Part shown: positions 3,302 through 56,256 of the stretch, piece after piece
Layout of the letters: each line of letters opens with the position of its first letter
How positions within the stretch are numbered: position 1 is the first letter of the stretch
DNA from: Candidatus Wildermuthbacteria bacterium
GTDB lineage: Bacteria > Patescibacteriota > Minisyncoccia > Minisyncoccales > UBA10102
NCBI GenBank assembly: GCA_016186115.1
Contig: JACPMK010000003.1
Location: forward strand, 90,470 to 154,469
DNA length: 64,000 nt
Direction: 5' to 3'
The notes under the pieces: generated by a model
Told to the model about the DNA's origin: nothing
Databases searched by the model: none
Seen by the model: only the letters and a program-made list of their open reading frames with translations
Program-made: the position numbers and the translations under genes

Positions 3302-3330
3302 GCACGAACCCCGTTGAGCCGTGCTTTTTT
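3302..3330 (+). terminator. Weak candidate rho-independent terminator after leuS
   Basis: A GCACG(3302-3306)/CGTGC(3320-3324) stem with a 13-nt loop is followed by TTTTTT (3325-3330). The short stem makes this a low-confidence call. Confidence 0.35.
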
Positions 3331-3361
3331 GCTTAATCGCTCGAGTAAGTGATTTTTCTTT

Positions 3362-3420
3362 GCCCCGCCCCGTCATTCGGCTGGGGCGGGGCACATTTCG
3401 CCTCGCCCTTACGGGCTGGC
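3362..3420. other. Two GC-rich hairpins in the leuS-glmS spacer
   Basis: There is a perfect 10-bp stem, GCCCCGCCCC (3362-3371) with GGGGCGGGGC (3383-3392), and a second hairpin GCCtcGCCC-TTAC-GGGCtGGC (3400-3420). Neither has a flanking U-run on either strand. Confidence 0.6.
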
Positions 3421-3537: not shown

Positions 3538-5370
3538 ATGTGCGGAATTGTTGGCTATATTGGCAAGCAAAAAGATATACGGATTGGCCTTGAGGCATTG
3601 CGGCGTCTGGAATACAGAGGATATGATTCTGCCGGGATGGCCGTGTACAATGCCGATGCGAAAACAATTCACTCTTTAAAAGCCGTGGGGAGGGTTGTAA
3701 ATTTGGAGCAAAGATTGAAAGAAGTTTCTTTCGAAGGAAGCCCATTTCTTTTTTATACAAGGTGGGCAACGCATGGCGGCGTCACCGAAGAAAATTGTCA
3801 TCCGCATTCCGATTGCAAAAATTCTGTCTGGGTAGTGCATAACGGCATTATCGAGAATTACCGTGAACTCAAAGAAAAATTGCAGCAGGAAGGTCATGCT
3901 TTTCATTCAGAAACAGATACGGAAGTAATTCCCCATTTGATAGAGCGTTTTTTCGAAGGCAATCTGGAGGAGGCAGTGCGCAAAATGCTTGGGTTGATCA
4001 GAGGGTCATTTGCTTTGGGTATTATTTCCAAGGATGATCCAGAAAAGCTTGTAGTCGTGCGCAATTCGGCACCTTTGCTCATCGGCGTTGGCGAAAATGA
4101 ATATCTGGTCGCATCAGATCCTTCTGCAATTGTGAGCCAGACAAAAAAAGTGATGTATCTGGAAGATGGCGAGATGGCATCTCTTACTCCTGAACGATGT
4201 TTGATTGAGGATATCAATCATCATGCGGTTCGCAAAGCAATTCATGAGATTGATTGGAGCGTAGAAGATGCGCAGAAAGGCGGCTATTCCCATTTTATGC
4301 TCAAGGAAATTATGGAGCAGCCAGAAAGTATTACCAATGCCTTGCGGGGAAGGGTATTGCCAGACACGGGCGAGGCGCGATTCGGTGGGCTAAGCGTAGT
4401 GCGGGAAAGATTGCGCTCAATCAAACGTATCAGCATAACTGCTTGCGGAACCGCATATTATGCCGGCTTGGTGGGAAGGTACATGCTTGAGGAATATACG
4501 GGCTTGCCTTGCGAGGCGGATGTTGCTTCTGAATTTCGCTATCGCAGACCGATCGTGAAAGACGACACCGCATTTCTTTTTATTTCCCAGTCAGGAGAAA
4601 CAGCGGATACCTTGGCCGCATTGCGCGAGGTAAAGAAAAAGGGAGGGCTTACCCTTGGGATTATCAATGTGACCGGGTCGTCGGTGGCAAGAGAGACCGA
4701 TGCAGGGATATACAATCATGCCGGGCCTGAAATCGGGGTTGCTTCGACCAAAGCATTTACCTCGCAGCTCACGATTTTGGCGTTGCTCACTTTGCTTCTA
4801 GGGAGGCAGCGGGAAATGTCGCTGGCGGACGGGCAAGTCGTTACAAGGGAGCTTCAAAGAATTCCCGATTTGGTTAAGCAAATTTTAGAGCAGAGAGAAA
4901 AGATAAAAGAAATTGCAGAGAAATACAAACATGCAGAAAACTTTTTATTCATTGGCAGAAAATATAACTATCCGGTTGCCTTGGAGGGGGCTCTCAAATT
5001 GAAAGAAATCTCGTATATTCATGCCGAGGGATACGGCGCGGGCGAAATGAAGCATGGCCCCATCGCGCTGATCGATGAGCAGTTTCCTACGATTGCTCTT
5101 TGCCCGCAAGACAGCGTGTACGAAAAAATGGTTTCCAATATCCAAGAGATCAAAGCGAGAAAGGGACCAGTGATCGCGATCACGAACGAAGGGAATGGCG
5201 GAATGAAAGAAATTGCAGACGACGTAATTTTTGTTCCAAGAACAATTGAGATGCTCAATCCTATCCTTATGGTTATTCCGTTGCAGCTGTTCGCCTATTT
5301 CATTGGAGTCGCGCGAGGATATGATGTGGACAAGCCCCGCAATTTAGCAAAGAGCGTTACAGTTGAATAG
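3538..5370 (+). CDS. glmS: Glutamine--fructose-6-phosphate aminotransferase (isomerising)
   Basis: 610 aa with an N-terminal MCGIVGY Ntn-amidotransferase start, two SIS domains, and the C-terminal ...LAKSVTVE. Confidence 0.97.
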   Translation: MCGIVGYIGKQKDIRIGLEALRRLEYRGYDSAGMAVYNADAKTIHSLKAVGRVVNLEQRLKEVSFEGSPFLFYTRWATHGGVTEENCHPHSDCKNSVWVVHNGIIENYRELKEKLQQEGHAFHSETDTEVIPHLIERFFEGNLEEAVRKMLGLIRGSFALGIISKDDPEKLVVVRNSAPLLIGVGENEYLVASDPSAIVSQTKKVMYLEDGEMASLTPERCLIEDINHHAVRKAIHEIDWSVEDAQKGGYSHFMLKEIMEQPESITNALRGRVLPDTGEARFGGLSVVRERLRSIKRISITACGTAYYAGLVGRYMLEEYTGLPCEADVASEFRYRRPIVKDDTAFLFISQSGETADTLAALREVKKKGGLTLGIINVTGSSVARETDAGIYNHAGPEIGVASTKAFTSQLTILALLTLLLGRQREMSLADGQVVTRELQRIPDLVKQILEQREKIKEIAEKYKHAENFLFIGRKYNYPVALEGALKLKEISYIHAEGYGAGEMKHGPIALIDEQFPTIALCPQDSVYEKMVSNIQEIKARKGPVIAITNEGNGGMKEIADDVIFVPRTIEMLNPILMVIPLQLFAYFIGVARGYDVDKPRNLAKSVTVE

Positions 5371-5377
5371 AAACACC

Positions 5378-6442
5378 ATGAAACTTTTTGAATACGAAGG
5401 GAAAAAACTTTTCGAAAAATACGGCATTCCCGTGCCAAAGGGTGTGCTTTTGACGATGGAGTCAACCAGACCATTGCTTGCCCCTCCGCTTGCGCTGAAG
5501 GCGCAGGTTCTTGCGGGAGAGCGAAAGGCAAGGGGAGGAGTTCTCTTTGTGGAAGATATGCAGGATTTTGAAAAAGCAAAAAGAAAACTTTTTGAAACAA
5601 CTATTGATGGCGAGACCCCTTCATATATTTTAGCCGAAGAAAGAATTCAAGCAGTTCAGGAATTATATGTAAGCTTTAGTTACGATACCGAAAGCAGAGG
5701 ACCCATTCTTGCAATTTCTGCAAAAGGAGGAACTGGCATTGCCGAGGCACAAATTATTCCTATTGATATTGCTTTGGGGTTGCCCGATTTTCTTATTCGC
5801 AACGCCTTGCTGCAAGCCCAGCTCCCATTGAATTCTTCATTGATCGCACTTATCAAATCGCTTTGGAGATTATTTATAGAGGAGAAAGCGATTCTTGCCG
5901 AAATCAACCCTCTTTTTGTGGTGAAAGAAGGAGTATATGTTGCGGGCGATGCAAAAATTATCCTTGATGACAATGTGATGAATCCTTTGTTCCGTCCCTT
6001 TCTCGATCTTGATGGCGACATTGCGGTGCTGGCATCGGGCGGAGGGGCCTCGCTCATAAATTTAGATGCTCTGCTTTATTTCGGCGGCAAACCTGCAAAT
6101 TATGTGGAGTATTCTGGCAATCCTCCGGCATCGGTGGTTGAAGAGTTGACGGTGCGGGTGTTCTCAAAACCCGGATTGAAGGGCTGCTGGGTGGTTGGGG
6201 GGACAGCGAACTTCACGGATATTTATGAGACCATGCTTGGGTTTGTGCAGGGTTTGCGCAAAATCCAGCCCAAGCCAACTTTTCCCATTGTGATTCGCAG
6301 AGATGGCCCGCGCCAAAAAGAGGGCTTTGAAATGCTACGAGAAGTTGCAAAAAATGAAGGATACAATTTCCATTTGTATGGGCCAGAGCTTCCTATGTCA
6401 GAGACAGCCCGCATTATGGTTGAATTAGCTTATAAAAAATGA
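5378..6442 (+). CDS. ATP-grasp beta-type subunit, ATP-citrate lyase / citryl-CoA synthetase-like (SucC superfamily)
   Basis: The ORF runs 5363-6442 and the likely start is the ATG at 5378 (MKLFEYEGKKLFEKYGIPVP). The motif GGGASLINLDALLYFGGKPANYVEYSGNP resembles the ACL-type ANYGEYSG block more than the SucC block. Confidence 0.7.
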   Translation: MKLFEYEGKKLFEKYGIPVPKGVLLTMESTRPLLAPPLALKAQVLAGERKARGGVLFVEDMQDFEKAKRKLFETTIDGETPSYILAEERIQAVQELYVSFSYDTESRGPILAISAKGGTGIAEAQIIPIDIALGLPDFLIRNALLQAQLPLNSSLIALIKSLWRLFIEEKAILAEINPLFVVKEGVYVAGDAKIILDDNVMNPLFRPFLDLDGDIAVLASGGGASLINLDALLYFGGKPANYVEYSGNPPASVVEELTVRVFSKPGLKGCWVVGGTANFTDIYETMLGFVQGLRKIQPKPTFPIVIRRDGPRQKEGFEMLREVAKNEGYNFHLYGPELPMSETARIMVELAYKK

Positions 6443-7341
6443 GCATTCTTGTTGATAAAAATACAATAGTTCTTGTGCAGGGAATTACGGGGAGAGAGGG
6501 CTCGCGTGCGGCGCGCGAGATGATTTCTTATGGAACAAAAGTTGCTGCTGGCGTGACTCCAGGCAAGGGCGGAACAAAAACCGAAGAAGGAATCCCAGTT
6601 TTCAATAGCGTGAAAGAAGCAAAAGGAGCATTCCCCGAAATCAACACTTCTTTGATTGCGGTGCCTCCGGCATTTGTGCTTGATGCGACTCTGGAGGCAA
6701 TGGCAAATCGTATACGGCTCATTGATATTCTTACCGAAAAAGTGCCTGTTGCAGAAGTGGCTCGCATGATTCGTTTTGCAGAGTATTATCAGGCAAAAAT
6801 TGTTGGGCCGAGTTCGGTTGGCATTCTTTCGCCCGGCAAAGGAAAGGTAGGCAGCATTGGCAGTTCTGAATTGGTGTATCGTATTTTTGCCCCCGGCCCA
6901 GTGGGCGTCATTTCCAAAAGCGGAGGAATGACTGCCGAACTTTCGAGAATTCTTACCGAGCAAGGTCTGGGCCAGAGCACCATTATTGGGATCGGCGGAG
7001 ATTTGTTGATCGGTTCTGATTTTGTTGATCTTGCCCTTGAATTTGAAAAGGACGCAGAAACAAAGGCAATCGCGATCTTTGGTGAGATCGGCGGCACCTA
7101 TGAGGAGCAGCTAGCAGAAGCAATAAGCGCAGGAAAAATTACCAAGCCCGTTGTCGCGCTCATTGCGGGGCGTTTCGCAGAACAGCTTCCGCAAGATACA
7201 GTATTGGGCCATGCGGGAGCAATCGTGAGCAAAGGAAGAGGATCGGCACGATCGAAGATCGAAGCGCTCACCAAGGCAGGCGCTCTTGTTGCCAACACCC
7301 CGGAAGAAATCCCATCGCTTATAAAAAAGGTCCTTACCTAA
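6439..7341 (+). CDS. CoA-binding alpha-type subunit (SucD / ACL-alpha / CcsB-like) with phosphohistidine loop
   Basis: 300 aa with VQGITGREGS, TPGKGG, and the phosphohistidine loop VLGHAGAIVS. It overlaps the upstream gene by 4 nt. Confidence 0.8.
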   Translation: MSILVDKNTIVLVQGITGREGSRAAREMISYGTKVAAGVTPGKGGTKTEEGIPVFNSVKEAKGAFPEINTSLIAVPPAFVLDATLEAMANRIRLIDILTEKVPVAEVARMIRFAEYYQAKIVGPSSVGILSPGKGKVGSIGSSELVYRIFAPGPVGVISKSGGMTAELSRILTEQGLGQSTIIGIGGDLLIGSDFVDLALEFEKDAETKAIAIFGEIGGTYEEQLAEAISAGKITKPVVALIAGRFAEQLPQDTVLGHAGAIVSKGRGSARSKIEALTKAGALVANTPEEIPSLIKKVLT

Positions 7342-7396
7342 GGGTCCTCTCAAACATGTTCCTTCGACGACGTTTCGTATTGTAAATTACAAGAAT

Positions 7397-8122
7397 ATGA
7401 AGTTTCACACAAGTATTAGTAAAACAGAAAATGGGGTTCATGTGATCCGTGGCCATGATCTCATTGAGCTCATGGAAAAGCACTCATTTGTGGAGGTGAT
7501 TTTTTTGCTCTTGCGAGGCAGTTTGCCAGAAGAGCGTGAACGAGAATTGATGGAAACAATGTTGGTAGCTCCGGTAGAAAACGGACTGGAAGCGCCTTCT
7601 ATTTTTATTCCTCGCATCGTGGCTTCTACGGGAAATAATTTTCATACCGCATTGGCTGCAGGAGTATTGGCAATTGGCGAGCGGCACGGCGGCGCAGGAG
7701 AAGCAGCGGCGCAATTGTTTTCCTCAGGAAAAAGTGCAGTTGAAATTGTAGATGAATATATACGCAATAAAAAGATTCTTCCGGGTTTTGGCCACAAGAT
7801 TTATAAAGAAGAAGACCCGAGGGCAACTGCAATATATAAGAGAGCAAAAGAACTCGGATTCTCTTGTCGATATTTTGAACTTGCCTATGCCATAGAGCAG
7901 GAGTTTGCCAAGCAAAAGGGCAAAAAAATTCCTCTCAATATCGATGGCGCGTTGGCGGCAGGATTGCTTGAGCTTGGGTTTGACGCACGGCTCGGGAAAG
8001 CATTCTTTTTGATTTCACGGATCATTGGCATGTCCGCACATATCTTGGAGGAGCTTAATCAGAATAATCCCTATTATCGTCTTGAAGAGAGCGAAGTTAC
8101 TCCTGACGAAAATGCATCATGA
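7397..8122 (+). CDS. Short citrate-synthase-fold protein (citryl-CoA lyase-like)
   Basis: 241 aa that retains the citrate-synthase catalytic contexts ERHGGAGEAA, GFGHKIYKEEDPRA and LNIDGALAA. Its length matches the lyase or C-terminal ACL module, not a full citrate synthase. Confidence 0.7.
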   Translation: MKFHTSISKTENGVHVIRGHDLIELMEKHSFVEVIFLLLRGSLPEERERELMETMLVAPVENGLEAPSIFIPRIVASTGNNFHTALAAGVLAIGERHGGAGEAAAQLFSSGKSAVEIVDEYIRNKKILPGFGHKIYKEEDPRATAIYKRAKELGFSCRYFELAYAIEQEFAKQKGKKIPLNIDGALAAGLLELGFDARLGKAFFLISRIIGMSAHILEELNQNNPYYRLEESEVTPDENAS

Positions 8123-9555: not shown

Positions 9556-10818
9556 ATGCAGGCAGTTATTATTGCGGCAGGAGAATCTTCTCGGTTTTGG
9601 CCATTAAATCATATCCATAAAACCCAGACCTATCTTTTGGGCAAGCCCATTATCTATTGGACATTGAAGGGTTTTGCAGAACACGGCATTCAAGATATTG
9701 TAATTGTGTGTCGCCCAAACTCTTCGATGCAAGAACTTCTGGAAAAAGAAAATGATCTTGGGGTGAGGATTTCTTTCGTTGTGCAGCAGGAACCTTTGGG
9801 AACGGGCAATGCCTTGTGGCAGGCGAAAGAATTAATCACAAAACCTTTTTATGTCTGCTGGCCAAATAAAGTGAATGCCGGAGAAATTATACATTTGATG
9901 GAGGAAAAACGAAAGGCAGGGGCGCAAGGAGTTCTGGTTGGAGGTTACACTGCAACCCCCTGGGATTACGGGATATTTCGTTGCGAAAATGATCGCATGG
10001 TTGAAATCGTAGAAAATCCTTTGCCTGGCAAGGAGCCATCAAATATCAAAATGCTTGGGCTGATGTATTTTGAGCGGGACTTTTTCAATTATTATGAGAA
10101 GCTGCCGGAGCATCACGAGGCCGACTTTATTGACGCAATCAATGCATACAGCAGAGAAAAACGGATATCCTTTGTGGCGCTTTCTGATGAGGCGCCCGCA
10201 CTAAAATATCCGTGGGAATTATTTGTGCTTTCTGATATTTTATTTAGGTCTTCGCTATTTTTTCCTGCTATTGCTCCAAGCGCGACCATTGGCAAGAACG
10301 TAATTATTGATGGCATGGTTCGTATTGGGGAGCATACGATTATCCACGACAGTACCATTATTACGGGCCCTTGTTTTATCGGCCCCGATTGCGAAATTGG
10401 ATACAGCAATGTGTTGCGGGGGCCGGTGGATTTGGAGCGGGGAGTAAAAACCGGAGCATACATGGAAATAAAACATAGCATTGTACAGGAAGGAACCCAT
10501 TTTCACTCCGGATTTCTTGGGGATTGTCTTGTTGGGAAAAACTGCCGATTCGGCGCTGGGTTTATTGCTGCGAATCGTCGTATGGATCGAGGTTCCATTG
10601 CTGTTTCGATAAAAGGGAAAAAGGTTGATACCGGACTGGATTTTTTTGGCGCCGCAATTGGCGAGGCAAGCCGTTTTGGCATTCACTCGGGAACAATGCC
10701 CGGAGTGCTGATAGGATCTCATTGTGTCATAGGGCCGGGCACCCATGTATTTGACAATATTCCAGACAATACTTCTGTGGTAACGAAATTTGCGAATGAG
10801 GAAAAGGAAATACCCTGA
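9556..10818 (+). CDS. Sugar-phosphate nucleotidyltransferase with C-terminal left-handed beta-helix (GlmU-like)
   Basis: The ORF runs 9529-10818 and the likely start is the ATG at 9556 (MQAVIIAAGESSRFWPL). The C-terminal half is rich in hexapeptide repeats. Confidence 0.75.
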   Translation: MQAVIIAAGESSRFWPLNHIHKTQTYLLGKPIIYWTLKGFAEHGIQDIVIVCRPNSSMQELLEKENDLGVRISFVVQQEPLGTGNALWQAKELITKPFYVCWPNKVNAGEIIHLMEEKRKAGAQGVLVGGYTATPWDYGIFRCENDRMVEIVENPLPGKEPSNIKMLGLMYFERDFFNYYEKLPEHHEADFIDAINAYSREKRISFVALSDEAPALKYPWELFVLSDILFRSSLFFPAIAPSATIGKNVIIDGMVRIGEHTIIHDSTIITGPCFIGPDCEIGYSNVLRGPVDLERGVKTGAYMEIKHSIVQEGTHFHSGFLGDCLVGKNCRFGAGFIAANRRMDRGSIAVSIKGKKVDTGLDFFGAAIGEASRFGIHSGTMPGVLIGSHCVIGPGTHVFDNIPDNTSVVTKFANEEKEIP

Positions 10819-13516: not shown

Positions 13517-14065
13517 ATGTTGATCGACCCCTTTTTTGTTGCGATCACAAAAAATTTTCTTTTGCATTTGAATTGGGTGAAACTGCCTCTTGCATTTGCC
13601 GCAGATTACAGCGGATACCTCATCATTTTTATTGTTTGTATTCTGCTGGTGAGAAATTTTCAAAAGTATAAGATCATGCTTTGGCAGATGATTGCTGCCG
13701 TAGTTCTCTCGCGTGGGATTATCACCGAGATCATTCGATTTATTTGGCATCGCGATCGCCCTTTTGTCGTAGAACATTTTTTGCCTATTATTAATCATCC
13801 TGAACTTTCTGGTTCATTTCCTTCGGGGCATGCTGCATTTTATTTTGCAATTGCCACCGTTGTATACTTTTACAATAAAAAAATAGGAGTAGTGCTTTTA
13901 CTCCTTAGTTTTGTAATGGGTTTGGGAAGAGTTTTTGCCGGAGTCCACTGGTTTTCTGATATTCTCGCGGGAGCCGCAATCGGAATCCTCTGCGCTTGGT
14001 TTATAAAGAAGATGTGCCGGGGGAGGGAGTTGAACCCTCACCTCCTTGCGAAGACGGGATTTTGA
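13517..14065 (+). CDS. PAP2-family membrane phosphatase (undecaprenyl-diphosphatase-like)
   Basis: The ORF runs 13493-14065 and the likely start is the ATG at 13517, right after the folD stop. Motifs are SFPSGHAAF and GVHWFSDILAG. The last ~17 codons overlap the antisense tRNA-Leu, so the true 3' end is uncertain. Confidence 0.75.
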   Translation: MLIDPFFVAITKNFLLHLNWVKLPLAFAADYSGYLIIFIVCILLVRNFQKYKIMLWQMIAAVVLSRGIITEIIRFIWHRDRPFVVEHFLPIINHPELSGSFPSGHAAFYFAIATVVYFYNKKIGVVLLLLSFVMGLGRVFAGVHWFSDILAGAAIGILCAWFIKKMCRGRELNPHLLAKTGF

Positions 14066-14098
14066 GTCCCGCGTGTCTGCCAGTTCCACCACCCCGGC
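14015..14098 (-). tRNA. tRNA-Leu (anticodon CAA), class II with long variable arm
   Basis: I folded it by hand. The parts are acceptor GCCGGGG/CCCCGGC, D-stem GTG/CAC, anticodon stem CGGGA/TCCCG with loop CTCAAAA, a variable arm with a GCAA loop, T-arm GAGGG-TTCAACT-CCCTC, and discriminator A. No CCA is encoded. Confidence 0.95.
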
Positions 14099-16867: not shown

Positions 16868-18842
16868 CCACTGCTTCAGAAAGCATCTGACAGTAAAGAT
16901 TCAAGCCGACGGCATTGACGCTGCCCGATTGTTCCCGTCCAAGAATATTTCCTGCGCCGCGGATTTCCAAGTCGCGCATCGCAATGCGATAGCCAGAACC
17001 TAATTCGCCAGCTTCTTTTAAGGCATCCAATCGCAGTTTCACCTTTTCGCCAAGTTTGCGGGCGCCATACAAGAAATAGGCATAGGCGGTTTTGGCTCCG
17101 CGCCCGATTCGCCCCCGGATTTGATATGCCTGTGCCAGTCCTAGTTTTGTCGCATCATCTGCAATAAGGGTATTTACATTTGGCAGATCAAGGCCATTTT
17201 CAATAATGGTTGTTGCCACAAGCATATCGAATTTCTTTTCTCTAAATTCGTCCACAATGCGAATGAGCGTTTTCTCTTTCATCCTGGCGTGAGCAATGCC
17301 GATTGTTGCACTGGGCACAATTTTTTCCAGATATTTTTTCACCTCTTCAATGGTGCCGATGCGATTGTGCAGATAATATATCTGCCCGCTTCTTTTTAGT
17401 TCTGTTTCAATCGCTTGCTTGATGGTTTTTTCTTTTCTTTGCGCCACAGCAATTTGTACCGGCATTCTTCCGGCAGGGGGCGTATAGATGAGCGAGATAT
17501 TTTTGAGAGAAGAAAGCGCCATGTACAAGGTGCGGGGGATGGGCGTTGCAGAGAGCGAAAGCACATCGAGCGATGCGCGCATTTCTCGCAGTTTTTCTTT
17601 TTGCTTCACGCCAAATCGTTGTTCGTCATCAATTACCAGCAACCCCAAGTTGCGGAATTTTACATCCGAAGAGAGCAATCGATGCGTGCCAATAACCATA
17701 TCGATTTGCCCGTTTTCGATCTGGGAAAGAATTTGTCGCTGTTCTTTTTTGGATTGGAGCCGTGAAAGCAGGGCTATGCGAAAAGGTAGATTTTTGAGCC
17801 GCGATTGAAAATTCTGAAAATGCTGATAGGCGAGAATGGTGGTGGGCGCGAGGAGAGCAGTTTGGTATCCGTTTTCCACGGCCATGACCATGGTCCGCAG
17901 CGCGATTTCAGTTTTCCCAAAGCCAACATCTCCGCACACGATGCGATCCATTGGCCGCGTACCGGATACGTCATGCTTAATGTCTTCAAGCGCTTTCGTT
18001 TGATCCGGCGTTTCCTGATAGGGGAATGTTGCTGTTACTTTTTCTCCGATTTCATTTGTTGCAAGATAGGGAGGCCGCATTGTAACCTCTCTTTTGGCAT
18101 AAAGTTCCAACAATTGTTTTGCCATTTTTTCCACTTCTTCCCATATTCTCTTTTTGGTCTTTTGCCAGAGCAAAGATCCCAGACGGGAAATGTGCGGCTC
18201 GGCAAAGCCAACATAGCGGGAAAGTTTTCTTTCCAGCCCTACTGGTACGAAGAGCTTGTCGCCAGCCGCGTACTCAAGTTCGTAGTATGTAGTATTTGGT
18301 ATCTGGTATTCAGTATGGAGGGATGCTGCGATGCCGGCAAATCGCGCAACGCCATGATCGAGGTGCACGACGTAGTCCCCGGGCTTCAGTCCTTTGAGAT
18401 CAGAAAAAATTCGCTGTGATTTGAGCCGCTTTTTGAGAATTTCTTTTATTTTTTGTTCTTCTCCTTCGGTATAGGATTTTCCTGCTATAGCATGAATATA
18501 TTCTATGGTGTTTCCCTTGAATTCAATTTGGATCGGATGGCTCGTATTGATGGGGAAGATTTCTACGATTCCCCCTCGATGAGCGAATTCTCCTAAATCT
18601 TGCACCTGAAAAACCTTTTCATAACCCAATTCATCGATTCTGCGAAGTAATTGAGTGAGGGGATATGTTTGACCGACTTCAAGAAAAATAACGTTGTCTT
18701 GAAAAAATGGTTGGGTTTTTCGCGCGGCGAGAATTTTTTGCAAATTCTCTTCAAACCAAACATTCCCCTTTTCCAAAAAGTAGGGGGTGATAGCGACGAT
18801 CAATAAATTTTGTACGGTTTTATCGGGATAAGTATATTCCAT
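16836..18842 (-). CDS. mfd: Transcription-repair coupling factor, short form
   Basis: The track ORF starts at a TTG (18848) and the likely ATG is at 18842. It has the CarD/TRCF motif GDYVVHLDHGVARFAGI, helicase Walker A CGDVGFGKTE, DDEQRFG, and the translocation motif AMRDLEIRGAGNILGREQSG. Confidence 0.9.
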   Translation of the reverse strand: MEYTYPDKTVQNLLIVAITPYFLEKGNVWFEENLQKILAARKTQPFFQDNVIFLEVGQTYPLTQLLRRIDELGYEKVFQVQDLGEFAHRGGIVEIFPINTSHPIQIEFKGNTIEYIHAIAGKSYTEGEEQKIKEILKKRLKSQRIFSDLKGLKPGDYVVHLDHGVARFAGIAASLHTEYQIPNTTYYELEYAAGDKLFVPVGLERKLSRYVGFAEPHISRLGSLLWQKTKKRIWEEVEKMAKQLLELYAKREVTMRPPYLATNEIGEKVTATFPYQETPDQTKALEDIKHDVSGTRPMDRIVCGDVGFGKTEIALRTMVMAVENGYQTALLAPTTILAYQHFQNFQSRLKNLPFRIALLSRLQSKKEQRQILSQIENGQIDMVIGTHRLLSSDVKFRNLGLLVIDDEQRFGVKQKEKLREMRASLDVLSLSATPIPRTLYMALSSLKNISLIYTPPAGRMPVQIAVAQRKEKTIKQAIETELKRSGQIYYLHNRIGTIEEVKKYLEKIVPSATIGIAHARMKEKTLIRIVDEFREKKFDMLVATTIIENGLDLPNVNTLIADDATKLGLAQAYQIRGRIGRGAKTAYAYFLYGARKLGEKVKLRLDALKEAGELGSGYRIAMRDLEIRGAGNILGREQSGSVNAVGLNLYCQMLSEAVEKLKPSDQKV
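18283..18317 (-). repeat. 7-nt phased micro-array inside mfd (plus strand TAGTATG|TAGTATT|TGGTATC|TGGTATT|CAGTATG; sense unit NATACNN)
   Basis: Read directly from the sequence. It encodes EYQIPNTTYYEL. Confidence 0.8.
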
Positions 18843-18880
18843 CCACAATCCATATATAAAACAATCTTTCGAATTTTCAA

Positions 18881-18922
18881 AGAGAGCCGAGGATGCATTG
18901 AATCATCCTCGGCTCTCTTTTT
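18881..18922. terminator. Strong hairpin with T-run between pth and mfd (terminator-like in both orientations)
   Basis: A 15-bp stem, AGAGAGCCGAGGATG (18881-18895) with CATCCTCGGCTCTCT (18904-18918), carries TTTTT on the plus side and TTTGAAAATT on the minus side. Confidence 0.65.
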
Positions 18923-18971
18923 GTATACTGATCTCATCTTCTTACTTATACACATCGCTAAGGAGATATGA

Positions 18972-19008
18972 AGGATATGAAGGAAGTCAAACTTCCTTCA
19001 TATCCTTA
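18972..19008. other. Perfect 17-bp hairpin abutting/overlapping the pth stop codon
   Basis: AAGGATATGAAGGAAGT-CAA-ACTTCCTTCATATCCTT, read directly from the sequence. Confidence 0.7.
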
Positions 19009-19581
19009 TTTCCTTATTAAACTCATTGCTTGGTCGAGGCCTTGGTCGATGATTGTTTGCAGCATTGCGGGAATACTATCTATTGTTTTGCGTATGGCTT
19101 GCAATTCTTGCGGGGTAAATTTGCGGAGCACGAAATTTTCAACGTCCTCCGGTTTTCCCGCAAGCGGCTGAATGCCAATTCTGATTCTTATAAAATCTTT
19201 TGTCCCGAGCTGCTCAATGATGGACTCCACGCCCTTGTGGCCGGCAGATCCGCTGGCAAAGGAAATTTTGAGTTGGCCAAGGGGCAGATCGATGTCGTCG
19301 TGGACAACGACTAGGTATTTAGTATTTAGTATTTTGTATTTAGCATAAAGCAATTTCGCGGCGAGGCCGGAGTTGTTCATGAGGGTCTGGGGCTTGGCGC
19401 AAAGAACGTCGGCCCCATCGATCCGTCCTTCGGAGATGAGAGATTCCGATTTTTTGTGAAGTTTACATTCGGGAAATTCGAATTTTGCCGCCAGCGCATC
19501 CAGCGCCATAAATCCCGCATTGTGACGGGTATGTTCATATTGCTTTCCCGGGTTGCCAAGACCAATGATGAGGTATTTCAT
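19006..19581 (-). CDS. pth: Peptidyl-tRNA hydrolase
   Basis: 191 aa with MKYLIIGLGNPG..YEHTRHNAGF and VVVHDDIDLPLG. Confidence 0.95.
   Translation of the reverse strand: MKYLIIGLGNPGKQYEHTRHNAGFMALDALAAKFEFPECKLHKKSESLISEGRIDGADVLCAKPQTLMNNSGLAAKLLYAKYKILNTKYLVVVHDDIDLPLGQLKISFASGSAGHKGVESIIEQLGTKDFIRIRIGIQPLAGKPEDVENFVLRKFTPQELQAIRKTIDSIPAMLQTIIDQGLDQAMSLIRK
19313..19347 (-). repeat. 7-nt phased micro-array inside pth (plus strand AGGTATT|TAGTATT|TAGTATT|TTGTATT|TAGCATA; sense unit AATACNA)
   Basis: Read directly from the sequence. It encodes AKYKILNTKYLV. Confidence 0.8.
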
Positions 19582-28357: not shown

Positions 28358-29551
28358 ATGGCTCGGACACTTTTATTTCCTCAGGGATTTTTTTGGGGTA
28401 CTGCAACTTCTGCTCATCAAGTCGAGGGGAATAATATTTATTCAGATTGGTGGAAGGCAGAACAGGAAGGCAAGGTGCCCCATAAATCGCAAAGAGCATG
28501 CGATTCATACAATCGCTACGAAGAAGATTTTGATTTGGCAAAAGCAATGCACAACAATGCGTATCGTTTTTCTATTGAGTGGGCGCGCATTGAGCCCCAA
28601 GAGGGCAAGTTTCAAGAAGAAGAAATCGAGCATTATCGCAGGGTGATCCGTGCCGCAAAAGAGCGGGGGCTGGAACCATTCGTAACATTGCACCATTATA
28701 CAGTTCCACAATGGTTTGCAGAAAAAGGTGGATGGACTCATAAAAAAGCTCCAGAGTATTTCGAGCGATATGTGCAATTTGTTGTAGAGCGGCTTGGAAA
28801 TGATGCGCGCTATTGGGTCACAATCAATGAACCCCTTATTCTGCTTGTGAAGGGGTATGGATCAGGAAGTTTCCCGCCATTTAAACGAAATAATTTCTTA
28901 GGGATGTTGCAAGCTACTTTTACAATGATAAAAGCCCATAAAAGGGCCTATAAAGTTATTCATGATCGAAATCCCGAAGCAAAAGTAGGCGTTGCGCATG
29001 CGATTAACTATTTAGAATCATCTGGGGGGATATTTCATGTTTTACAGATTCCAGTTGTTTTTGTACTGCGGTATGTTAAAGATCAATGGTTTTTGGATCA
29101 AATTAAAAACTCACAGGATTTTATTGGGGTAAACCACTATAGGCGTATAAAATTTTCATTCCGTAGAGGATCTTTTACAGAAGGAGATATTCTAAGCGAT
29201 TTTGGGTGGGAAGTTTATCCTCGTGGTATGTACCATGTGGTAAAATCCTTGCAAAGGTTTAAGCTACCCATTTTTATTACGGAAAATGGTATTGCGAATG
29301 CAAAGGATGATCATCGCTCAGCTTTTATAGTCGAACATTTGCAAGAGTTGCATAAAGCAATTGAAGAGGGGGCTGATGTGAGGGGATATTTTCATTGGTC
29401 GTTGCTCGATAACTTTGAATGGGCAGAGGGATTTCATATGAAATTTGGATTGGTCGAGGTTGATTTTGAAACATTAGAGAGGCGGCCTCGCCCCAGCGCA
29501 AATACATATGCCGAAATCTGCAGAACCAGTTCATTGGAAATTGATAGTTGA
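28358..29551 (+). CDS. Glycoside hydrolase family 1 beta-glucosidase
   Basis: 397 aa with FFWGTATSAHQVEG, the acid/base TINEP, and the nucleophile FITENG. Confidence 0.9.
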   Translation: MARTLLFPQGFFWGTATSAHQVEGNNIYSDWWKAEQEGKVPHKSQRACDSYNRYEEDFDLAKAMHNNAYRFSIEWARIEPQEGKFQEEEIEHYRRVIRAAKERGLEPFVTLHHYTVPQWFAEKGGWTHKKAPEYFERYVQFVVERLGNDARYWVTINEPLILLVKGYGSGSFPPFKRNNFLGMLQATFTMIKAHKRAYKVIHDRNPEAKVGVAHAINYLESSGGIFHVLQIPVVFVLRYVKDQWFLDQIKNSQDFIGVNHYRRIKFSFRRGSFTEGDILSDFGWEVYPRGMYHVVKSLQRFKLPIFITENGIANAKDDHRSAFIVEHLQELHKAIEEGADVRGYFHWSLLDNFEWAEGFHMKFGLVEVDFETLERRPRPSANTYAEICRTSSLEIDS

Positions 29552-29569
29552 TAATTGAAAATTTGTATC

Positions 29570-31509: not shown

Positions 31510-32517
31510 ATGAAGCGTATTTTCTTAGCTATTATCTTGCTACTGGTTGCGGCTGTTTTGTTTTTCTTTACGGGCGTTCCCAAGCCCGCAGAAAAAATTC
31601 TATGGGGCATAACTTTTTCTCATTCTTATGCAAGAGACCTTGGATTGGATTGGCGCCAGACATATCTTGCTTTGCTCGATGATCTTGGCGTAAGGAATAT
31701 CCGTATTCCTCTCTATTGGAATGAGTTGGAGCGGGAGGAGGGAGCATTCGATTTTTCTTTATGGGATTGGCAATTGCAAGAATTAGAAAAAAGACAGGGC
31801 AAGGCAATCATAGCAATTGGCGTAAAACTTCCTCGCTGGCCCGAATGCCATATACCAGAGTGGGCAAGGGGTTTATCGCAAGAAAAGCGCCAAGAAGCAG
31901 TTCTTTCGATGCTTCAGGAGGTTGTTGAGCATTACAAAAATTGGAATGTTATTGAGAAATGGCAGGTGGAAAACGAATATACCGCGTCTTCGGGCATTTG
32001 CCCGAAATTAGACGTATCCTTGCTTCCAAAAGAAGTACATTTGGTGCGTACGCTGGATCAGCGACAAATTATTCTACAAGATGAGGGCATTGCATCTTCA
32101 TGGTTTTTTGCTGGGGAATATGCTGATATTATTGGAATTTCGATGTATCGTTTTCGAGCAAGCGAGACATTGGGATTGATTCATTATCCCTTTCCTCCAG
32201 CCATTTTCCAGAGAAAAGCGCAGCTTTTTCATATGAAATATCCCAACAAAAAAGTGATTATCACAGAACTGCAAGCAGAGCCATGGCCAGTAACTGGAAC
32301 AGTGGAGGGAGATTATAGAACAATGGACCCGCAGCGTTTTCAGCAGCATATTGCATACGCGAAACGCACTGGTTTTGATGAATTTTATCTCTGGGGCGCC
32401 GAATGGTGGTACTGGTTGAAAATTCATGGCGAGAATGCTATTTGGAATGAGGCAAAAGAATTGTATAATGAAATATATTTATTGAACTTTTTGCATGCGA
32501 AAACGCATCTATCTTGA
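31510..32517 (+). CDS. Membrane-anchored clan GH-A TIM-barrel glycosidase-like protein, paralogue 2 (tandem duplicate)
   Basis: It is collinear with paralogue 1: LGLDWRQTYLALLDDLGVRNIRIPLYWNELEREEGAFDFSLWDWQLQELEKR against LGLNWRETYLALVDDMGVRRFRIPIYWDELEKEKGKFDFSAWDWQLQELEKR. It also has WQVENEY and IITELQAEPW. Confidence 0.6.
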   Translation: MKRIFLAIILLLVAAVLFFFTGVPKPAEKILWGITFSHSYARDLGLDWRQTYLALLDDLGVRNIRIPLYWNELEREEGAFDFSLWDWQLQELEKRQGKAIIAIGVKLPRWPECHIPEWARGLSQEKRQEAVLSMLQEVVEHYKNWNVIEKWQVENEYTASSGICPKLDVSLLPKEVHLVRTLDQRQIILQDEGIASSWFFAGEYADIIGISMYRFRASETLGLIHYPFPPAIFQRKAQLFHMKYPNKKVIITELQAEPWPVTGTVEGDYRTMDPQRFQQHIAYAKRTGFDEFYLWGAEWWYWLKIHGENAIWNEAKELYNEIYLLNFLHAKTHLS

Positions 32518-33667
32518 TTATTCGGCTTCGACACCGGTTGATCCTAAGGTTTTGCGAGCAATGCTCCCGTATTTCAAAAAGGAATTTGGCAATCCCTCTT
32601 CGCGTCATGGCTATGGCCAGCGCGCCAGCGCAGCAATTGAACACGCAAGAACTCAAGTAGCCAACTTTCTGGGCTGCGCTGCCCAAGAAATTATTTTTAC
32701 AGGCGGCGCAACAGAATCAAACAATCTTGCTATCCAAGGCATTGTCGGACAAAAAAGAGCAACAAAGCCGCATGTTATTACTTCTGCTATTGAACATGAA
32801 TCTGTGCTGGAAGTATGCCGGACCCTTGAAAAAGAAGGAGCGGCAGAAGTGAGCTATCTTACTCCCGATGCAGAAGGAATAATAGAAGTGAAAGAGGTGG
32901 AGCGCGCAATCCGTCCCAACACCACGCTCGTTTCTATCGGCTATGCCAACAGCGTAATCGGTACCATTCAGCCCATTGCAGAAATTGGGAAATTGCTTTC
33001 TCAATACAATATACAAAATACTACATACAAGATACTATTTCATACCGATGCGGTGCAGGCAGCCCTTTATCTTTCTTGCGACGTGAAAAAGTTGGGAGTT
33101 GATTTGCTCACGTTGAGCGCGCATAAGCTGTATGGTCCCAAAGGTGTTGGCGCTCTTTTCGTCAAAACAGGGGTTGCGCTTCGGCCTTTGCTTTTTGGCG
33201 GAGGGCAGGAGAATGATCAAAGAGCAGGTACTCAAAATGTTCCGGGAATTGTCGGGTTGGGAACAGCGATCCAAGAACTTCAGAATCCCCGTATGGCCCT
33301 GACCGCAATCAAAATCCGGCAATTGAGGGACCGGCTTACCAAAACCATTCTTAAAAAAATTTCTGGAGCAGCTCTTTCGGGTTCTTCTCAAAAGCGTCTT
33401 CCATCGAATGTGCATATAAGATTTGAGGGATGCCAAGCGCGAGATATCGCATTTCTTTTTGATCAAAAGGGTATCGCCGTTTCTACGGGTTCTGCGTGCT
33501 CTGAAAGAAGTCAGGAGCCCTGCCATGTGCTTTTGGCAATGGGTTTTTCCGCAGGCGAAGCGCTTTCTGGGGTGCGCATCACTCTTGGAAGATATACCAC
33601 AGCAGAAGAAATTGATGCTGTGGCAGAGAAATTGCCCGCAATTATTACGCAATTAAGAAAATCATAA
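32495..33667 (+). CDS. iscS: Cysteine desulfurase (IscS/NifS class)
   Basis: 390 aa with IYLDYSASTP, the PLP lysine in SAHKLYGPKG, and the catalytic Cys in STGSACS. Confidence 0.9.
   Translation: MRKRIYLDYSASTPVDPKVLRAMLPYFKKEFGNPSSRHGYGQRASAAIEHARTQVANFLGCAAQEIIFTGGATESNNLAIQGIVGQKRATKPHVITSAIEHESVLEVCRTLEKEGAAEVSYLTPDAEGIIEVKEVERAIRPNTTLVSIGYANSVIGTIQPIAEIGKLLSQYNIQNTTYKILFHTDAVQAALYLSCDVKKLGVDLLTLSAHKLYGPKGVGALFVKTGVALRPLLFGGGQENDQRAGTQNVPGIVGLGTAIQELQNPRMALTAIKIRQLRDRLTKTILKKISGAALSGSSQKRLPSNVHIRFEGCQARDIAFLFDQKGIAVSTGSACSERSQEPCHVLLAMGFSAGEALSGVRITLGRYTTAEEIDAVAEKLPAIITQLRKS
33004..33038 (+). repeat. 7-nt phased micro-array ATACAAT|ATACAAA|ATACTAC|ATACAAG|ATACTAT inside the cysteine desulfurase gene
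   Basis: Read directly from the sequence. It encodes QYNIQNTTYKIL and uses the same unit family as the mfd and pth arrays. Confidence 0.8.
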
Positions 33668-40608: not shown

Positions 40609-43600
40609 ATGAGTAAATTCGCAAAGAAATTCTTTACGACTGCAATTATTTCCGTTGTGGCGGTAAGCGTTGCCGTTCCTGCTGGAGTAGCGAACGGAGC
40701 AACGGTAGATGAGCTTCAGGCGCAGATTAATGCGCTTTTAGCGCAGATCGCTCAATTGCAGACGCAGTTGTCAGGACAGACGACTGGCGGCACAACCGGT
40801 ACTCTTTCCGGAATTCCTGCCGGTTTCACCTTTACGACAAATCTTTCGCAGGGTGCCAGCGGAAATGACGCGAAATATCTCCAGATTGTGCTGAACTCTG
40901 ATTCTGCTACAATGGTCGCGAGTTCAGGAGCTGGTTCTTCGGGAAATGAAACTACATTCTTTGGTCCTAAAACCAAGACTGCAGTTGTAAAGTTCCAGGA
41001 GAAATATGCTTCTGAAGTTTTGGCTCCATGGGGAATGACACAGGGGAGCGGTTTTGTTGGATCTACCACCAGAGCAAAGTTGAATGCTTTGATTTCTGGC
41101 GGAGTGAGTCCATCACCTAGCCCGTCTGCTTCGCCATCTCCTTCAGCTTCTCCGACACCAACACCAACACCCGGAACAGGAAATACCCTTCAGGTATCTC
41201 TTGCTTCTGACACACCCGCAGCAGCAACAGTTGTAGCGGGTGGAAATGCCAACTTCACCAAATTCTGGCTAACAGCCGGAAGTTCAGAAGTTGCGATCTC
41301 CAGCTTGTATGTTACGAGATCTGGATTGACAGCAAATTCTGATCTCGAGAACGTCAAAATTCTCGATGAGAATGGAGTAAAGGTAGGATCGCTTGGCACG
41401 TTGAATACCAACAGTAAAGCGCAGATTACCTTCTCTCCGTCATTGAAGATTGCTGCGAATACCAGCAAAGCGTTCTATATCAGAGCAGGAGCAATCAGTG
41501 GCATTACTGCTGGGAAAACCGCAGTATTGGGCATTGATGCTGCCGCAGATGTCAATGCAGGAGGCGCTACGGTAAGTGGTTCTTTCCCAGTAAAGGGGAA
41601 CACCATGACCGCAGTATCTCTTACGATTGGTTCTGTTGAGGTTATGGAAGACGGCGCATTGACTGATTCCCAGCCCAATGTTGGGGATAAGGATGTTGTC
41701 GTGAACGCCTTCAAAGTGGTGGTGGGATCAACAGAAGGAGTAACTATTGAGCAGATTACCGTAGAGGAATCGGGTACTGCTTCGTTGACTGACACCCAGA
41801 ATATCGAGCTGTATGATGTGACCAAGGGAGTGTCATTGGGAACAACCCAGTGGACTGCTGACGGCAAAGCATCATGGGGCGGCTTGAATCTTTCTCTTAC
41901 TAAAGGAGAAACACGCCGCTTGAGAGTGCAACTCGATGTTATTGATGGCCCCAGCTTGACTGTGAATGCTGATCTTATGGATGGAAGCGATGTATTGATG
42001 TCTGTCAAGGGTAATACCTATGGCTTCTACATCACTCCTGATGGAAACGATGCTTCCGACTGGACGAACAGCAATGATGGTTTGGCAAACAGCAACCAGA
42101 CCGTTCAAACAGGAGCAGTAACAGTGTCTAAGTCCTCATCTACCCCTGCAACTGGAAATATTGCCCAAGCGAACAATCAATCGCTTGCCGCATTTGATTT
42201 CTTGGTTCAGGGCGAATCAGTCAAGATTACTTCGCTGAAGTTATCCTTTGACTTGGGAAGCATGGAGGAAACAGAGGTAACCAATGTCAAGATATATGAT
42301 AAGAACGGAACTCTGCTTGCAGGACCCCAGGATTTGAACACAACCAACGTAACTGGCGCAAACAGCACCACCTACGAAGGTTCTGTTACGTTCACTGATA
42401 CGATTATTCTTCCCGTGGGCACAAATACCTTATCCGTGAAAGCGGATATTGCAACCGCTACTTCGGGAGATGACACCATTAGGGTTGGTATTTCTGATGC
42501 CGATGCCACTGACATTACGGTAACCGGAATGACATCGAATAATACGATTGGCTCAACGCCAGCTAACACGGAAGTAAATGCCAACACTCAAACAGTGAAG
42601 GCAGCTGCTTTGGTAGCGCGAACTCTTACTACTCCTGCGGCTACGAACGTAGCAAAGGGAGTAAATGATTACGTATTTGCCATTGTTGCTCTGGATGCAA
42701 ATAACTCCGGCGAGGATGTATTGGTAACGTCATTAACCGTTACTGATACTCCGGCGGGAGGCGCAGACGCGAGCGACATTGACAATACCGAGATTTGGGC
42801 TGACTTGACCGCAGACAAGAGTTCCCGCGGAGATGTGTACGAGACCCTTGTGGGCAATCCTCTGCAGTTCGACGAAACAACCCTTAACACCGCAGATACA
42901 TTGGCTTACACATTGACCAAGACCATTCGCGTTCCGAAGGATAGTTACGTCAATGTGGCGGTAGTCGGAGATGTGGCGACAGGAGCTACTAACGGATCTC
43001 ATACAATGAAAATCAGCGCCGCAACTGGTACCGGAGCTGACACGGGAAATGCCATTACCGAAACGTTTTCTGGCAATGGTCAGGCAATGACCCTATCTAC
43101 CAGCGGTGCCTTAACAGTTGCGTTGGATGCCTCTTCTCCCGCATCAAAGCTGATGGTTGGAAGCGCGAGCAAGGAAACCTTGGCAGCATTCAAGCTTTCA
43201 GCCAATGCAGTGGAGAATCTGGATATCGACTCTGTGCAGTTAAAGGTGACCAATGGTGATATGGTGGCTACGTGGTATCTCTATGATGGTGATACCCTGT
43301 TGAGCTCGAGTTCTTCCGTAACAGCTTCTACGGAAACCGATCTCACGATCAATCTTGTTGACAATACGCTTGTGGTTCCTGCTGGAAGCAGCAAGCGACT
43401 CACCGTGAAAGGTGATTTGCAGCCAGCTACTACAAGCAGCCATGACAACGTGAGTATTCAGGTTGGCGTGGTGGATGCGAGTGACATTGTTTCAACCGGG
43501 AAATCATCCGGTGCTGCCGTAAACTCAACCGGCACAGGAACTGCTTCGGCACATGATCTCTATCGATCGTATCCGAAGTTTAGTGTCAATTCAGCATCGC

Positions 43601-56237: not shown

Positions 56238-56256
56238 CGAACATATTCATCATTCT

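Follow-up and report, generated by a model that had tools for sequence, protein, structure and literature searches.

The DNA analysed here, referred to as the window, is a stretch of 64,000 nt from a metagenome-assembled genome (MAG) of Candidatus Wildermuthbacteria, which belongs to the Parcubacteria within the candidate phyla radiation (CPR). It covers positions 90,470-154,469 of the forward strand of contig JACPMK010000003.1 (assembly GCA_016186115.1). The protein sequences of the window give the same assignment, with nearest relatives that are 59-70% identical. Three unrelated genes of the window, encoding an Mfd-like helicase, peptidyl-tRNA hydrolase (Pth) and a NifS-type cysteine desulfurase, each contain a tandem array of 7-nt units with an ATAC core (Table 1). 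A sequence-only reading of the window had reported these arrays together with the peptides EYQIPNTTYYEL in Mfd, KYKILNTKYLVV in Pth and QYNIQNTTYKIL in the cysteine desulfurase. The three positions and sequences are confirmed letter for letter, and the hosts and peptides are correct by domain matches and translation.

Table 1. Heptamer arrays in the window and the genes that host the ATAC-type arrays.
Feature	Positions	Strand	Units or domains	Peptide or remark
Mfd/TRCF-like helicase, 670 aa	16836-18848	-	UvrB_inter, CarD_TRCF_RID, DEAD, Helicase_C domains	
ATAC-type array in Mfd-like gene	18283-18317	-	CATACTG AATACCA GATACCA AATACTA CATACTA	(H)TEYQIPNTTYY
Peptidyl-tRNA hydrolase (Pth)	19006-19581	-		host of second ATAC array
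ATAC-type array in pth	19313-19347	-	TATGCTA AATACAA AATACTA AATACTA AATACCT	(Y)AKYKILNTKYL
NifS/IscS-type cysteine desulfurase, class-V aminotransferase	32495-33667	+	Aminotran_5 domain	
ATAC-type array in cysteine desulfurase gene	33003-33037	+	AATACAA TATACAA AATACTA CATACAA GATACTA	QYNIQNTTYKIL
LeuRS array	1508-1543	+	AATTCAA (necklace AAAATTC)	IEFKIQSSKLKI; gapless relative to T. thermophilus LeuRS; shared with orthologue P0362
LeuRS array	1616-1648	+	CAAATYA (necklace AAATTAC)	IPNLKSQITNW
LeuRS array	2342-2380	+	TTGGAAA	inverted partner of array 2728-2770
LeuRS array	2728-2770	+	AATTTCC/AATTTTC	RIWNFQFPISNFQS
LeuRS array	2894-2923	+	AATTTCT	EISNFQFIIS
AATTGAT-type array	29533-29563	+	stop codons in units	spans GH1 stop; just upstream of next ATG at 29571

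An exact search finds runs of two or more NATACNA units at only these three sites in the 64 kb, and Tandem Repeats Finder reports each array as period 7 with 4.1-5.1 copies and 75-90% matches. The pattern ATACNNNATACNNNATAC has eight matches, all within the three arrays, against 0.00 expected from 100 dinucleotide-preserving shuffles, none of which yields even one three-unit match. The two-unit version of the NATACNA pattern has 14 matches against 0.44 expected, the recurrence noticed in the letters therefore holds against shuffled controls. The Pth array is identical in sequence in five independent assemblies from different samples, and arrays are also found in orthologues from other studies. 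Chance, a compositional artefact or an assembly error could appeal to the AT-richness of the segments and to nothing further; by the shuffles, the independent assemblies and the orthologues of other studies, an origin of this kind is refuted.

The unit length of seven is not a multiple of three, so successive units are translated in all three frames. The repeat visits all three frames in every 21 nt, and any sense array of at least four units consequently holds the peptide Y-x-I-x-N-T-x-Y. A sense-strand ATAC array yields the heptad x-Y-x-I-x-(N/D)-T in whichever protein hosts it. The sequence-only reading had stressed that the three arrays share one phase. The common peptide is present, but the shared phase carries no independent weight, since all frames are cycled and the order by codon strings is a-b-c-a-b in Mfd and Pth and b-c-a-b-c in NifS. 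It had also stressed that all three arrays lie in the sense orientation of their genes, this is true of three out of three but is weak alone (p=0.125), and antisense and paired forms occur in relatives. The antisense arrays encode other peptides, for example VSSIKYQVS and ISYLVSGILY.

The codons used in the arrays of the window are unusual for the genome. Tyrosine is TAC in seven of eight cases (30% in the genome), isoleucine is ATA in four of four (15%) and leucine is CTA in three of three (4%). Given the peptides, the codon choice has a log10 P of -19.6, compared with -14.3 +/- 0.9 when synonymous codons are drawn at random, and 20,000 such draws never gave so extreme a value. The ATAC arrays are DNA-level objects in which the codons are set by the repeat. 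As the rare codons ATA and CTA, and likewise TAC, are dictated by the repeat, protein-level convergence is excluded as the cause of the DNA similarity, and the earlier remark that the resemblance is hard to explain by protein function is borne out.

The structural setting of the arrays was examined in AlphaFold models. In the NifS model (mean pLDDT 91.3) residues 170-180 form the sole low-confidence coil, which lies between a helix (161-169) and a strand (181-185). The Mfd model has a mean pLDDT of 70.5; here the array makes up the loop that joins two beta-strands within the CarD/RID domain, and residues 176-181 score below 50. As modelled, the array peptides sit in exposed, poorly ordered loops leading into a native beta-strand.

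Two explanations would place the cause in the protein or in its translation. In the first, Y-x-I-x-N-T-x-Y would have been selected separately in each enzyme, for instance as a beta-hairpin or turn, and the DNA likeness would be a by-product. The peptide is conserved among orthologues and its alternating hydrophobic and polar residues lead into a beta-strand, as such selection would have it. The codon test contradicts it: the array codons are rare ones and identical in all hosts and lineages, which selection on the protein would not call for. The segment is moreover a low-confidence coil, and it is absent from many close orthologues. We consider this explanation highly improbable. In the second, the array would be a rare-codon cluster, with ATA, CTA and TAC kept to slow the ribosome before a core beta-strand and so to aid co-translational folding. 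ATA and CTA are indeed retained despite their rarity in the genome, and in NifS, Pth and Mfd a buried strand follows directly after the array. A pause needs no 7-nt periodicity, however, most array codons (AAA, CAA, AAT, GAT) are common, and the arrays are absent from many orthologues of the same fold, which makes this a very unlikely cause.

Many Parcubacteria orthologues hold peptides of the type KYKI(Q/L)(D/N)TKY at the same three sites, and in the DNA of eleven related loci the ATAC core is intact. The sequence-only reading had taken a peptide shared by orthologues across distant lineages as a sign against a DNA-level cause. The peptide is shared within the Parcubacteria, yet the DNA repeat is shared along with it, so an explanation by protein function is not rescued. 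Codons were counted over 15 arrays chosen by peptide alone, with the rest of the same genes as the baseline. Isoleucine is ATA in 20 of 20 cases in the arrays (27% elsewhere, p=1e-11), tyrosine is TAC in 27 of 33 (44%, p=6e-5), leucine is CTA in nine of 13 (7%) and aspartate is GAT in nine of nine (58%). Where aligned residues agree, the codons are identical in 161/215 cases (75%) within the arrays against 3522/8515 (41%) elsewhere in the genes (p=1e-22). The unit logo is A-A-R-A-T-A-C, in which T5 and C7 are present in 64 of 64 units and A6 in 62 of 64; the spacer positions are variable despite the amino-acid changes that this entails. The three arrays of the window likewise share the core and differ at spacer positions. 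Arrays thus recur at the same sites in orthologues that are 55-70% identical, with the synonymous sites of the ATAC core conserved.

The sequence-only reading had proposed that alignment of the host proteins would reveal whether the segments are insertions. In NifS and Mfd they are. Compared with orthologues of the P0139 kind (LLKKF-KILFHTD), the NifS array adds exactly 7 aa (21 nt, three units); against solved structures of IscS/NifS it is an insertion of 5-8 aa just before the (I/L)FH(T/I)DA strand. The Mfd array also adds exactly 7 aa relative to an array-free orthologue that is 70% identical (P0242). In Pth the array overlies the native FY(K/S)(I/V)...(L/I) segment, it aligns to FYSV-APANI of the Mycobacterium tuberculosis enzyme and adds a single residue, and in leucyl-tRNA synthetase (LeuRS), which carries arrays of other units, the gain is about 0 to +5 aa.

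The arrays in NifS and Pth adjoin the native codons K-Y-K-I-L, spelled AAA TAC AAR ATA CTn, which already hold the unit. The Mfd array adjoins native T-T-Y-Y, spelled ACT ACA TAC TAC. The seed codons are visible in orthologue DNA and in outgroup DNA, and in diverse bacteria the Pth site reads (F/Y)-(K/R)-I, often with ATA for isoleucine. These sequences may have served as native seeds holding about two units, which slipped-strand expansion would have lengthened in frame-keeping steps of three units (21 nt, 7 aa).

Two further observations concern the same host genes. The NifS gene at locus L211 contains two near-perfect (AAAATAC)3-4 arrays at different sites, 10245-10287 and 10516-10557; the second, which has no counterpart in the gene of the window, suggests a recent expansion. 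Five Pth orthologues (P0043, P0060, P0066, P0087 and P0092) share an insertion, homologous among them and about 45 aa long (…GKTEIQGRHFQDQ.GLL…), which divides the array motif precisely between QIRD and RYM, with a DNA example at L212:10199-10435. Folded as RNA, this insertion shows no unusual structure (z = +1.1).

The excess of 7-nt repeats extends beyond the ATAC-type arrays. A tandem-period scan of the window finds 11 arrays of period 7 and none in shuffles, other periods give 0-3 and period 7 is the sole one enriched. Ten of the 11 arrays lie within long open reading frames (ORFs) of conserved genes, and all the intragenic units are A-rich on the sense strand. The density of period-7 arrays is 17.2 per 100 kb in the window and 15.8 per 100 kb in related Parcubacteria (70 kb, in pieces of about 20 kb at loci picked via the host genes), and period 7 is dominant in both. 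In other bacteria (1.0 Mb) the density is 1.4 per 100 kb and the dominant periods are 6, 9 and 12 (5-7.5 per 100 kb). These other bacteria are the metagenome loci fetched through an Mfd alignment meant for CPR orthologues, where 76 of 80 loci were non-CPR because the anchoring peptides are universal.

The LeuRS gene (816-3251) alone holds five or six arrays of AATT-type units. They overlie native variable segments when compared with T. thermophilus LeuRS, and two of them (2343-2380 and 2735-2765) repeat each other in inverted orientation at a distance of 354 nt. The LeuRS array peptides IEFKIQxSxLKI and QITNWxEVEKYI recur in orthologues. Many of the closest LeuRS relatives (P0361-P0510) are 900-1340 aa long and match the 811-aa query in two to five separate pieces, which implies large insertions near query residues ~240, ~364-377 and ~441.

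Other units and other hosts are also found. The array at the end of the GH1 gene reads AATTGAT AGTTGAT AATTGAA and ends 8 nt before the following ATG, it recalls the start-codon-proximal TAACTGA repeats of Beggiatoaceae. An (AAGAATC)n array is present inside a topoisomerase I gene at locus L008 (L008:12645-12689). The ATAC-type peptide family also occurs in other CPR genes, including those for glycosyltransferases, SerRS and LigA.

The recurrence of one unit in unrelated genes can be related to base composition and stop codons. Of the heptamer necklaces that contain T, two of the 15 with five A's are stop-free (AAAATAC and AAAAATC), as are 24 of the 95 with four A's. Every unit family seen in ORFs is stop-free, namely AAGATAC, AAACTAC, AAAATTC, AAGAATC, AAAATCC and AAATTAC. 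Among stop-free units with at least four A's, eight of 26 contain ATAC, to be compared with three of the 10 observed. A+T makes up 83% of the arrays and 55% of the coding strand. Unrelated genes would converge on one unit if A/T-rich arrays free of stops in three frames leave almost only the ATAC type. Copying between genes is unnecessary to account for a common unit. Average coding composition together with the stop filter was rejected as a full explanation, it predicts ATAC in 3-4% of stop-free units against the 3/10 observed (p ~0.003-0.006).

Among the origins that the sequence-only reading had offered, convergent heptamer expansion is the best supported, in view of the 21-nt gains beside native codons containing ATAC, the stop filter and the lineage-wide excess of period 7. 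The copying of a short element into genes is unsupported for the window: arrays lie at the same sites in relatives that are 55-70% identical, those in Pth and LeuRS are not insertions, and the window holds no transposase. We therefore think it probable that the arrays are in-frame heptanucleotide microsatellites of about five A-rich units (consensus A-A-R-A-T-A-C), in a genome where period 7 is the dominant repeat period, and that they grew by slippage and converged on a common unit.

In relatives, arrays also occur as inverted pairs. One group of Mfd orthologues contains the layout (nGTATCT)x5 - GAAGAA - (AAnATAC)x6 in frame, encoding GISYLVSGILY-PEE-KIQNTNYKIQDTKYY. This hairpin folds better than shuffled sequence (z = -4.3 and -5.5 at loci L006 and L008), and it is common to four lineages, including its irregular units, with a codon identity of 80% against 44% in the flanks. 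The array of the window Mfd aligns with the right arm only. An array-loop-inverted-array layout is also present in SerRS, in other ORFs and between genes, in several phyla. The arrays of the window fold no better than shuffles (z = -0.15, -0.99 and -0.41), they have no complementary partner arm in cis, and the window contains no antisense GTAT array.

Hairpins of related kinds are found outside these genes and at the Pth site. Units of the types AAGAATC/GATTCTT and AAGATAC/GTTTCTT form intergenic hairpins (L132:975-1110 and 3315-3420; z = -4.1 and -5.4), one of which sits directly after the Mfd stop codon in L132. At L006:8575-8630 and L218:2145-2200 the Pth loop that carries the array in the window is instead KLGLSKTKPSL, encoded by a perfect in-frame palindrome of 14-15 bp (RNA fold z = -4.9 and -6.7), and four coordinated synonymous differences between the two loci keep the pairing.

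The hairpin forms bring to mind the Rickettsia palindromic elements, reportedly described by Ogata et al. in 2000 as selfish palindromic DNA inserted in frame in protein-coding genes. These elements are about 100-150 bp long and are dispersed copies of one element family. The likeness is that unrelated essential proteins come to contain one DNA-derived peptide, which is tolerated in surface loops and which some orthologues have and others lack; the hairpins of the Mfd and SerRS orthologues are in addition palindromic and in frame. The differences are that the arrays described here are tandem heptamers of 35-90 nt, often non-palindromic (0/3 in the window), that the unit differs by gene, and that at least two arrays look like local three-unit expansions of native codons. 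The Rickettsia palindromic element is the closest functional analogy, and the arrays of the window fail its defining palindrome test.

The arrays could then be imagined as remains of a small selfish palindromic element of this kind, with inverted-heptamer arms and in-frame insertion, those of the window being half-elements that had lost an arm. The folding of the Mfd hairpins, the spread of the paired layout over ORFs, intergenic DNA and several phyla, the single peptide family in many unrelated CPR proteins and the alignment of the window Mfd as a right arm would all fit such an element. Speaking against it, target-site duplications are missing from the window, as are genes for a transposase or reverse transcriptase and any terminal repeats other than the arrays. 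What NifS gained is a block of exactly three units next to a native seed, in Pth and LeuRS the arrays stand in place of native residues rather than in addition to them, units differ between genes (AATT-type in LeuRS, AAGAATC in TopA), and no array of the window has a partner arm in cis. We regard a selfish element as unlikely.

The conserved synonymous sites could also mean that the heptads are a functional cis-element on mRNA or DNA that marks a set of housekeeping genes. Candidate readers would be a cold-shock or OB-fold protein on single strands, a ribbon-helix-helix protein binding heptads on duplex DNA, or a complementary RNA with GUAU repeats. The near-invariance of the core beside variable spacers points this way, as does the retention of synonymous sites across lineages with saturated flanks, even though the peptide itself forms a disordered loop. 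In the hairpin forms it is the cores that pair, and compensatory synonymous changes maintain a different in-frame hairpin in the same Pth loop. CspB is reported to bind heptamer repeats with one protein per heptamer (PMC4679880).

Other evidence is difficult to reconcile with a dedicated signal. No candidate reader was found, and among the scanned window ORFs there is no cold-shock gene, transposase or reverse transcriptase. The sole Rfam match in the window is a tRNA at 14015-14098, with none over the arrays. Heptamer families with other cores are present in the same genome, and the presence of the motif is phylogenetically scattered. Viral contigs, giant-virus MAGs among them, commonly carry (AARATAC)n, and heptamers with an ATAC core are spread over many phyla; a contig scan for (ATACNNN)3ATAC gave at least 120 loci, listed in file order, which are generic heptamer simple sequence repeats (SSRs) of many phyla and many spacer types. 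The recognition motif suggested by the sequence-only reading gains some support from the conserved synonymous sites of the core, but no reader of it was found and the unit is a generic one in viruses and other phyla. Such a cis-element may exist, but it appears doubtful.

A wider form of this idea, which we offer tentatively and hold to be unlikely, is that the ATAC arrays and the inverted-pair hairpins constitute a second information layer in CPR housekeeping genes, nucleic-acid elements under purifying selection whose peptides are a tolerated read-out. They would act as in-frame hairpin arms of mRNA or DNA, or as sites for a factor reading one heptad per subunit.

Within the microsatellite explanation, the conserved synonymous sites may mean that the nucleic acid itself is selected, be it as hairpin arm or as heptad recognition motif, or that slippage turnover keeps re-homogenising the units. 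Turnover is favoured by the scattered distribution on the gene trees and by the near-perfect arrays at two sites of the L211 NifS gene. Inheritance with constraint is favoured by the irregular units common to lineages in the Mfd hairpin, by the position-specific spacers in the NifS arrays, by the spacers of the window that have diverged beside intact cores and by arrays that are identical across assemblies. For the hairpin form we lean slightly towards selection at the nucleic-acid level.

Several results weigh against slippage and convergence as we have described them. The five assemblies represent one population, in which the Pth array shows zero length polymorphism. Given this and the imperfect units, slippage is not shown to be active. 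Arrays that overlie native residues with almost no net change of length, as those in Pth and LeuRS do, are not what simple expansion would predict; either expansion was offset by the loss of neighbouring residues or another process is at work. The apparent dominance of ATAC units is biased by the choice of loci via the host genes. With ATAC units expected at only 3-4% under average composition, the convergence needs the extra premise that arrays are A-rich, which is itself unexplained. The stop filter also leaves unaccounted the absence of drift from ATA to ATT or ATC, since AAAATTC and AAAATCC are stop-free too. Finally, motif-bearing orthologues are scattered on the gene trees, where the observed and shuffled numbers of state changes are 13 and 16.2 for NifS, 12 and 14.5 for Mfd and 7 and 13.5 for Pth. 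This fits turnover and conflicts with a single ancient constrained origin, although single-gene neighbour-joining trees at 55-70% identity are weak for separating ancient from recurrent origin. The resemblance of the three genes is mechanistically explained, the preference for period 7 and the conservation of synonymous sites in the core are not.

Heptamer repeats are known from other bacteria. Short tandemly repeated repetitive sequences (STRRs) have been known in cyanobacteria since about 1990; their unit sequences and their heterocystous host are not matched here, where the units are of the types AARATAC and AAAATTC. Among long SSRs, heptamers are reported to be the commonest class in many bacterial genomes, with polymerase slippage as the proposed cause (Mrazek et al. 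2007, as summarised in PMC4679880 and PMC4692102). The described cases include Xanthomonas GGGAATC, Nostoc GGGGAYT, the cyanobacterial STRRs and Beggiatoaceae TAACTGA (PMC4692102, PMC4679880), and the repeats are mainly intergenic, at ORF ends and the protein periphery, or in hypothetical proteins (PMC4679880, PMC4692102). Repeats within genes are normally multiples of three (PMC4692102, PMC4679880, PMC9879509).

The arrays described here resemble long heptanucleotide SSRs in having tandem 7-nt units in two to six or more copies, in the preference for period 7 over other non-triplet periods, in a lineage-specific excess and in occasional inverted pairs able to form stem-loops. The number of tandem copies exceeds what composition gives, both for the ATAC pattern (4.1-5.1 copies; 8 matches vs 0.00) and for period 7 as a whole (11 arrays vs 0). 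Copy number does not vary among the five assemblies of one population and differs by 7 aa, or three units, between orthologues. They differ in lying within conserved enzymes, read in frame, shared by orthologues 55-70% identical and conserved at synonymous sites, and in having A-rich AARATAC units rather than G-rich ones in a CPR/Parcubacteria host. The location of 10 of the 11 arrays in long ORFs rather than intergenic DNA is a difference of setting, not of repeat type.

Tandem repeats within genes have also been described in Borg elements, where they create mostly disordered peptides and every intragenic unit length is divisible by three (PMC9879509). In both systems DNA repeats in ORFs give unrelated proteins alike low-complexity peptides. 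With the 7-nt unit here, only steps of three units keep the frame, and reading through all three frames gives a peptide repeat of seven residues. Phase-variable contingency loci share with the arrays a non-triplet unit inside a reading frame; such loci have near-perfect repeats of polymorphic length in genes for surface or virulence functions, whereas the arrays here are imperfect, identical across assemblies and in essential housekeeping genes. This assignment was rejected on the 75-90% matches, the identity across assemblies and the hosts mfd, pth and nifS. Repetitive extragenic palindromes and bacterial interspersed mosaic elements (REP/BIME) with their associated tyrosine transposases (RAYT) were rejected as well, as the arrays are intragenic, their core is GTAT/ATAC and not GTAG/CTAC, and no Y1_Tnp domain is found in the scanned window ORFs. 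Resemblances to programmed-frameshift slippery heptamers, Rho or Hfq binding motifs, DNA uptake sequences and omega-type WATCACW heptad iterons are without support. No description of in-frame heptamer arrays for CPR/Patescibacteria was found in the literature searched. Heptanucleotide microsatellites themselves are known, it is their in-frame embedding in conserved genes that is new.

Some other features of the window deserve mention. The Mfd homologue has no match to the usual N-terminal modules or to the C-terminal TRCF domain, and all of its ~120 closest relatives are of like length, so this is a lineage-wide short form. The short spacer between mfd and pth contains two perfect 17-bp inverted repeats, at 18879-18920 and 18971-19007 with loops of 8 nt and 3 nt. 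One directly follows the pth stop codon and the other shortly precedes the start of mfd; their probable roles are those of a terminator and a regulatory hairpin. At 5363-8122 three adjoining genes resemble a split ATP-citrate lyase/citryl-CoA system, with the domains ATP-grasp_2 and Citrate_bind in one, CoA_binding and Ligase_CoA in another, and the C-terminal domain of Citrate_synt in the last. Such a trio is unexpected for a CPR genome of reduced metabolism. The ORFs at 40609-44067 (1152 aa) and 56161-57432 (423 aa) have no Pfam match at E<=1e-5.

Heptanucleotide repeats have been known since 2007 as the commonest long SSR in many bacteria, without an accepted origin or function. They are hard to study because they are intergenic and lack a neutral yardstick. 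With arrays in frame inside conserved enzymes, the synonymous sites and the orthologues without arrays serve as built-in controls. The in-frame arrays show the repeat shaping the protein and not the reverse, with a stop-codon filter that pushes unrelated genes towards one unit and one peptide. Conservation of the core at the DNA level goes far beyond the needs of the protein, which makes nucleic-acid selection on heptamer repeats directly testable. A practical consequence is that identical short peptides in unrelated CPR proteins should not be taken for signs of shared domains, recent transfer or contamination. If the arrays were indeed a second layer of information, period-7 repeats of bacteria in general would be functional cis-elements and not the debris of slippage.

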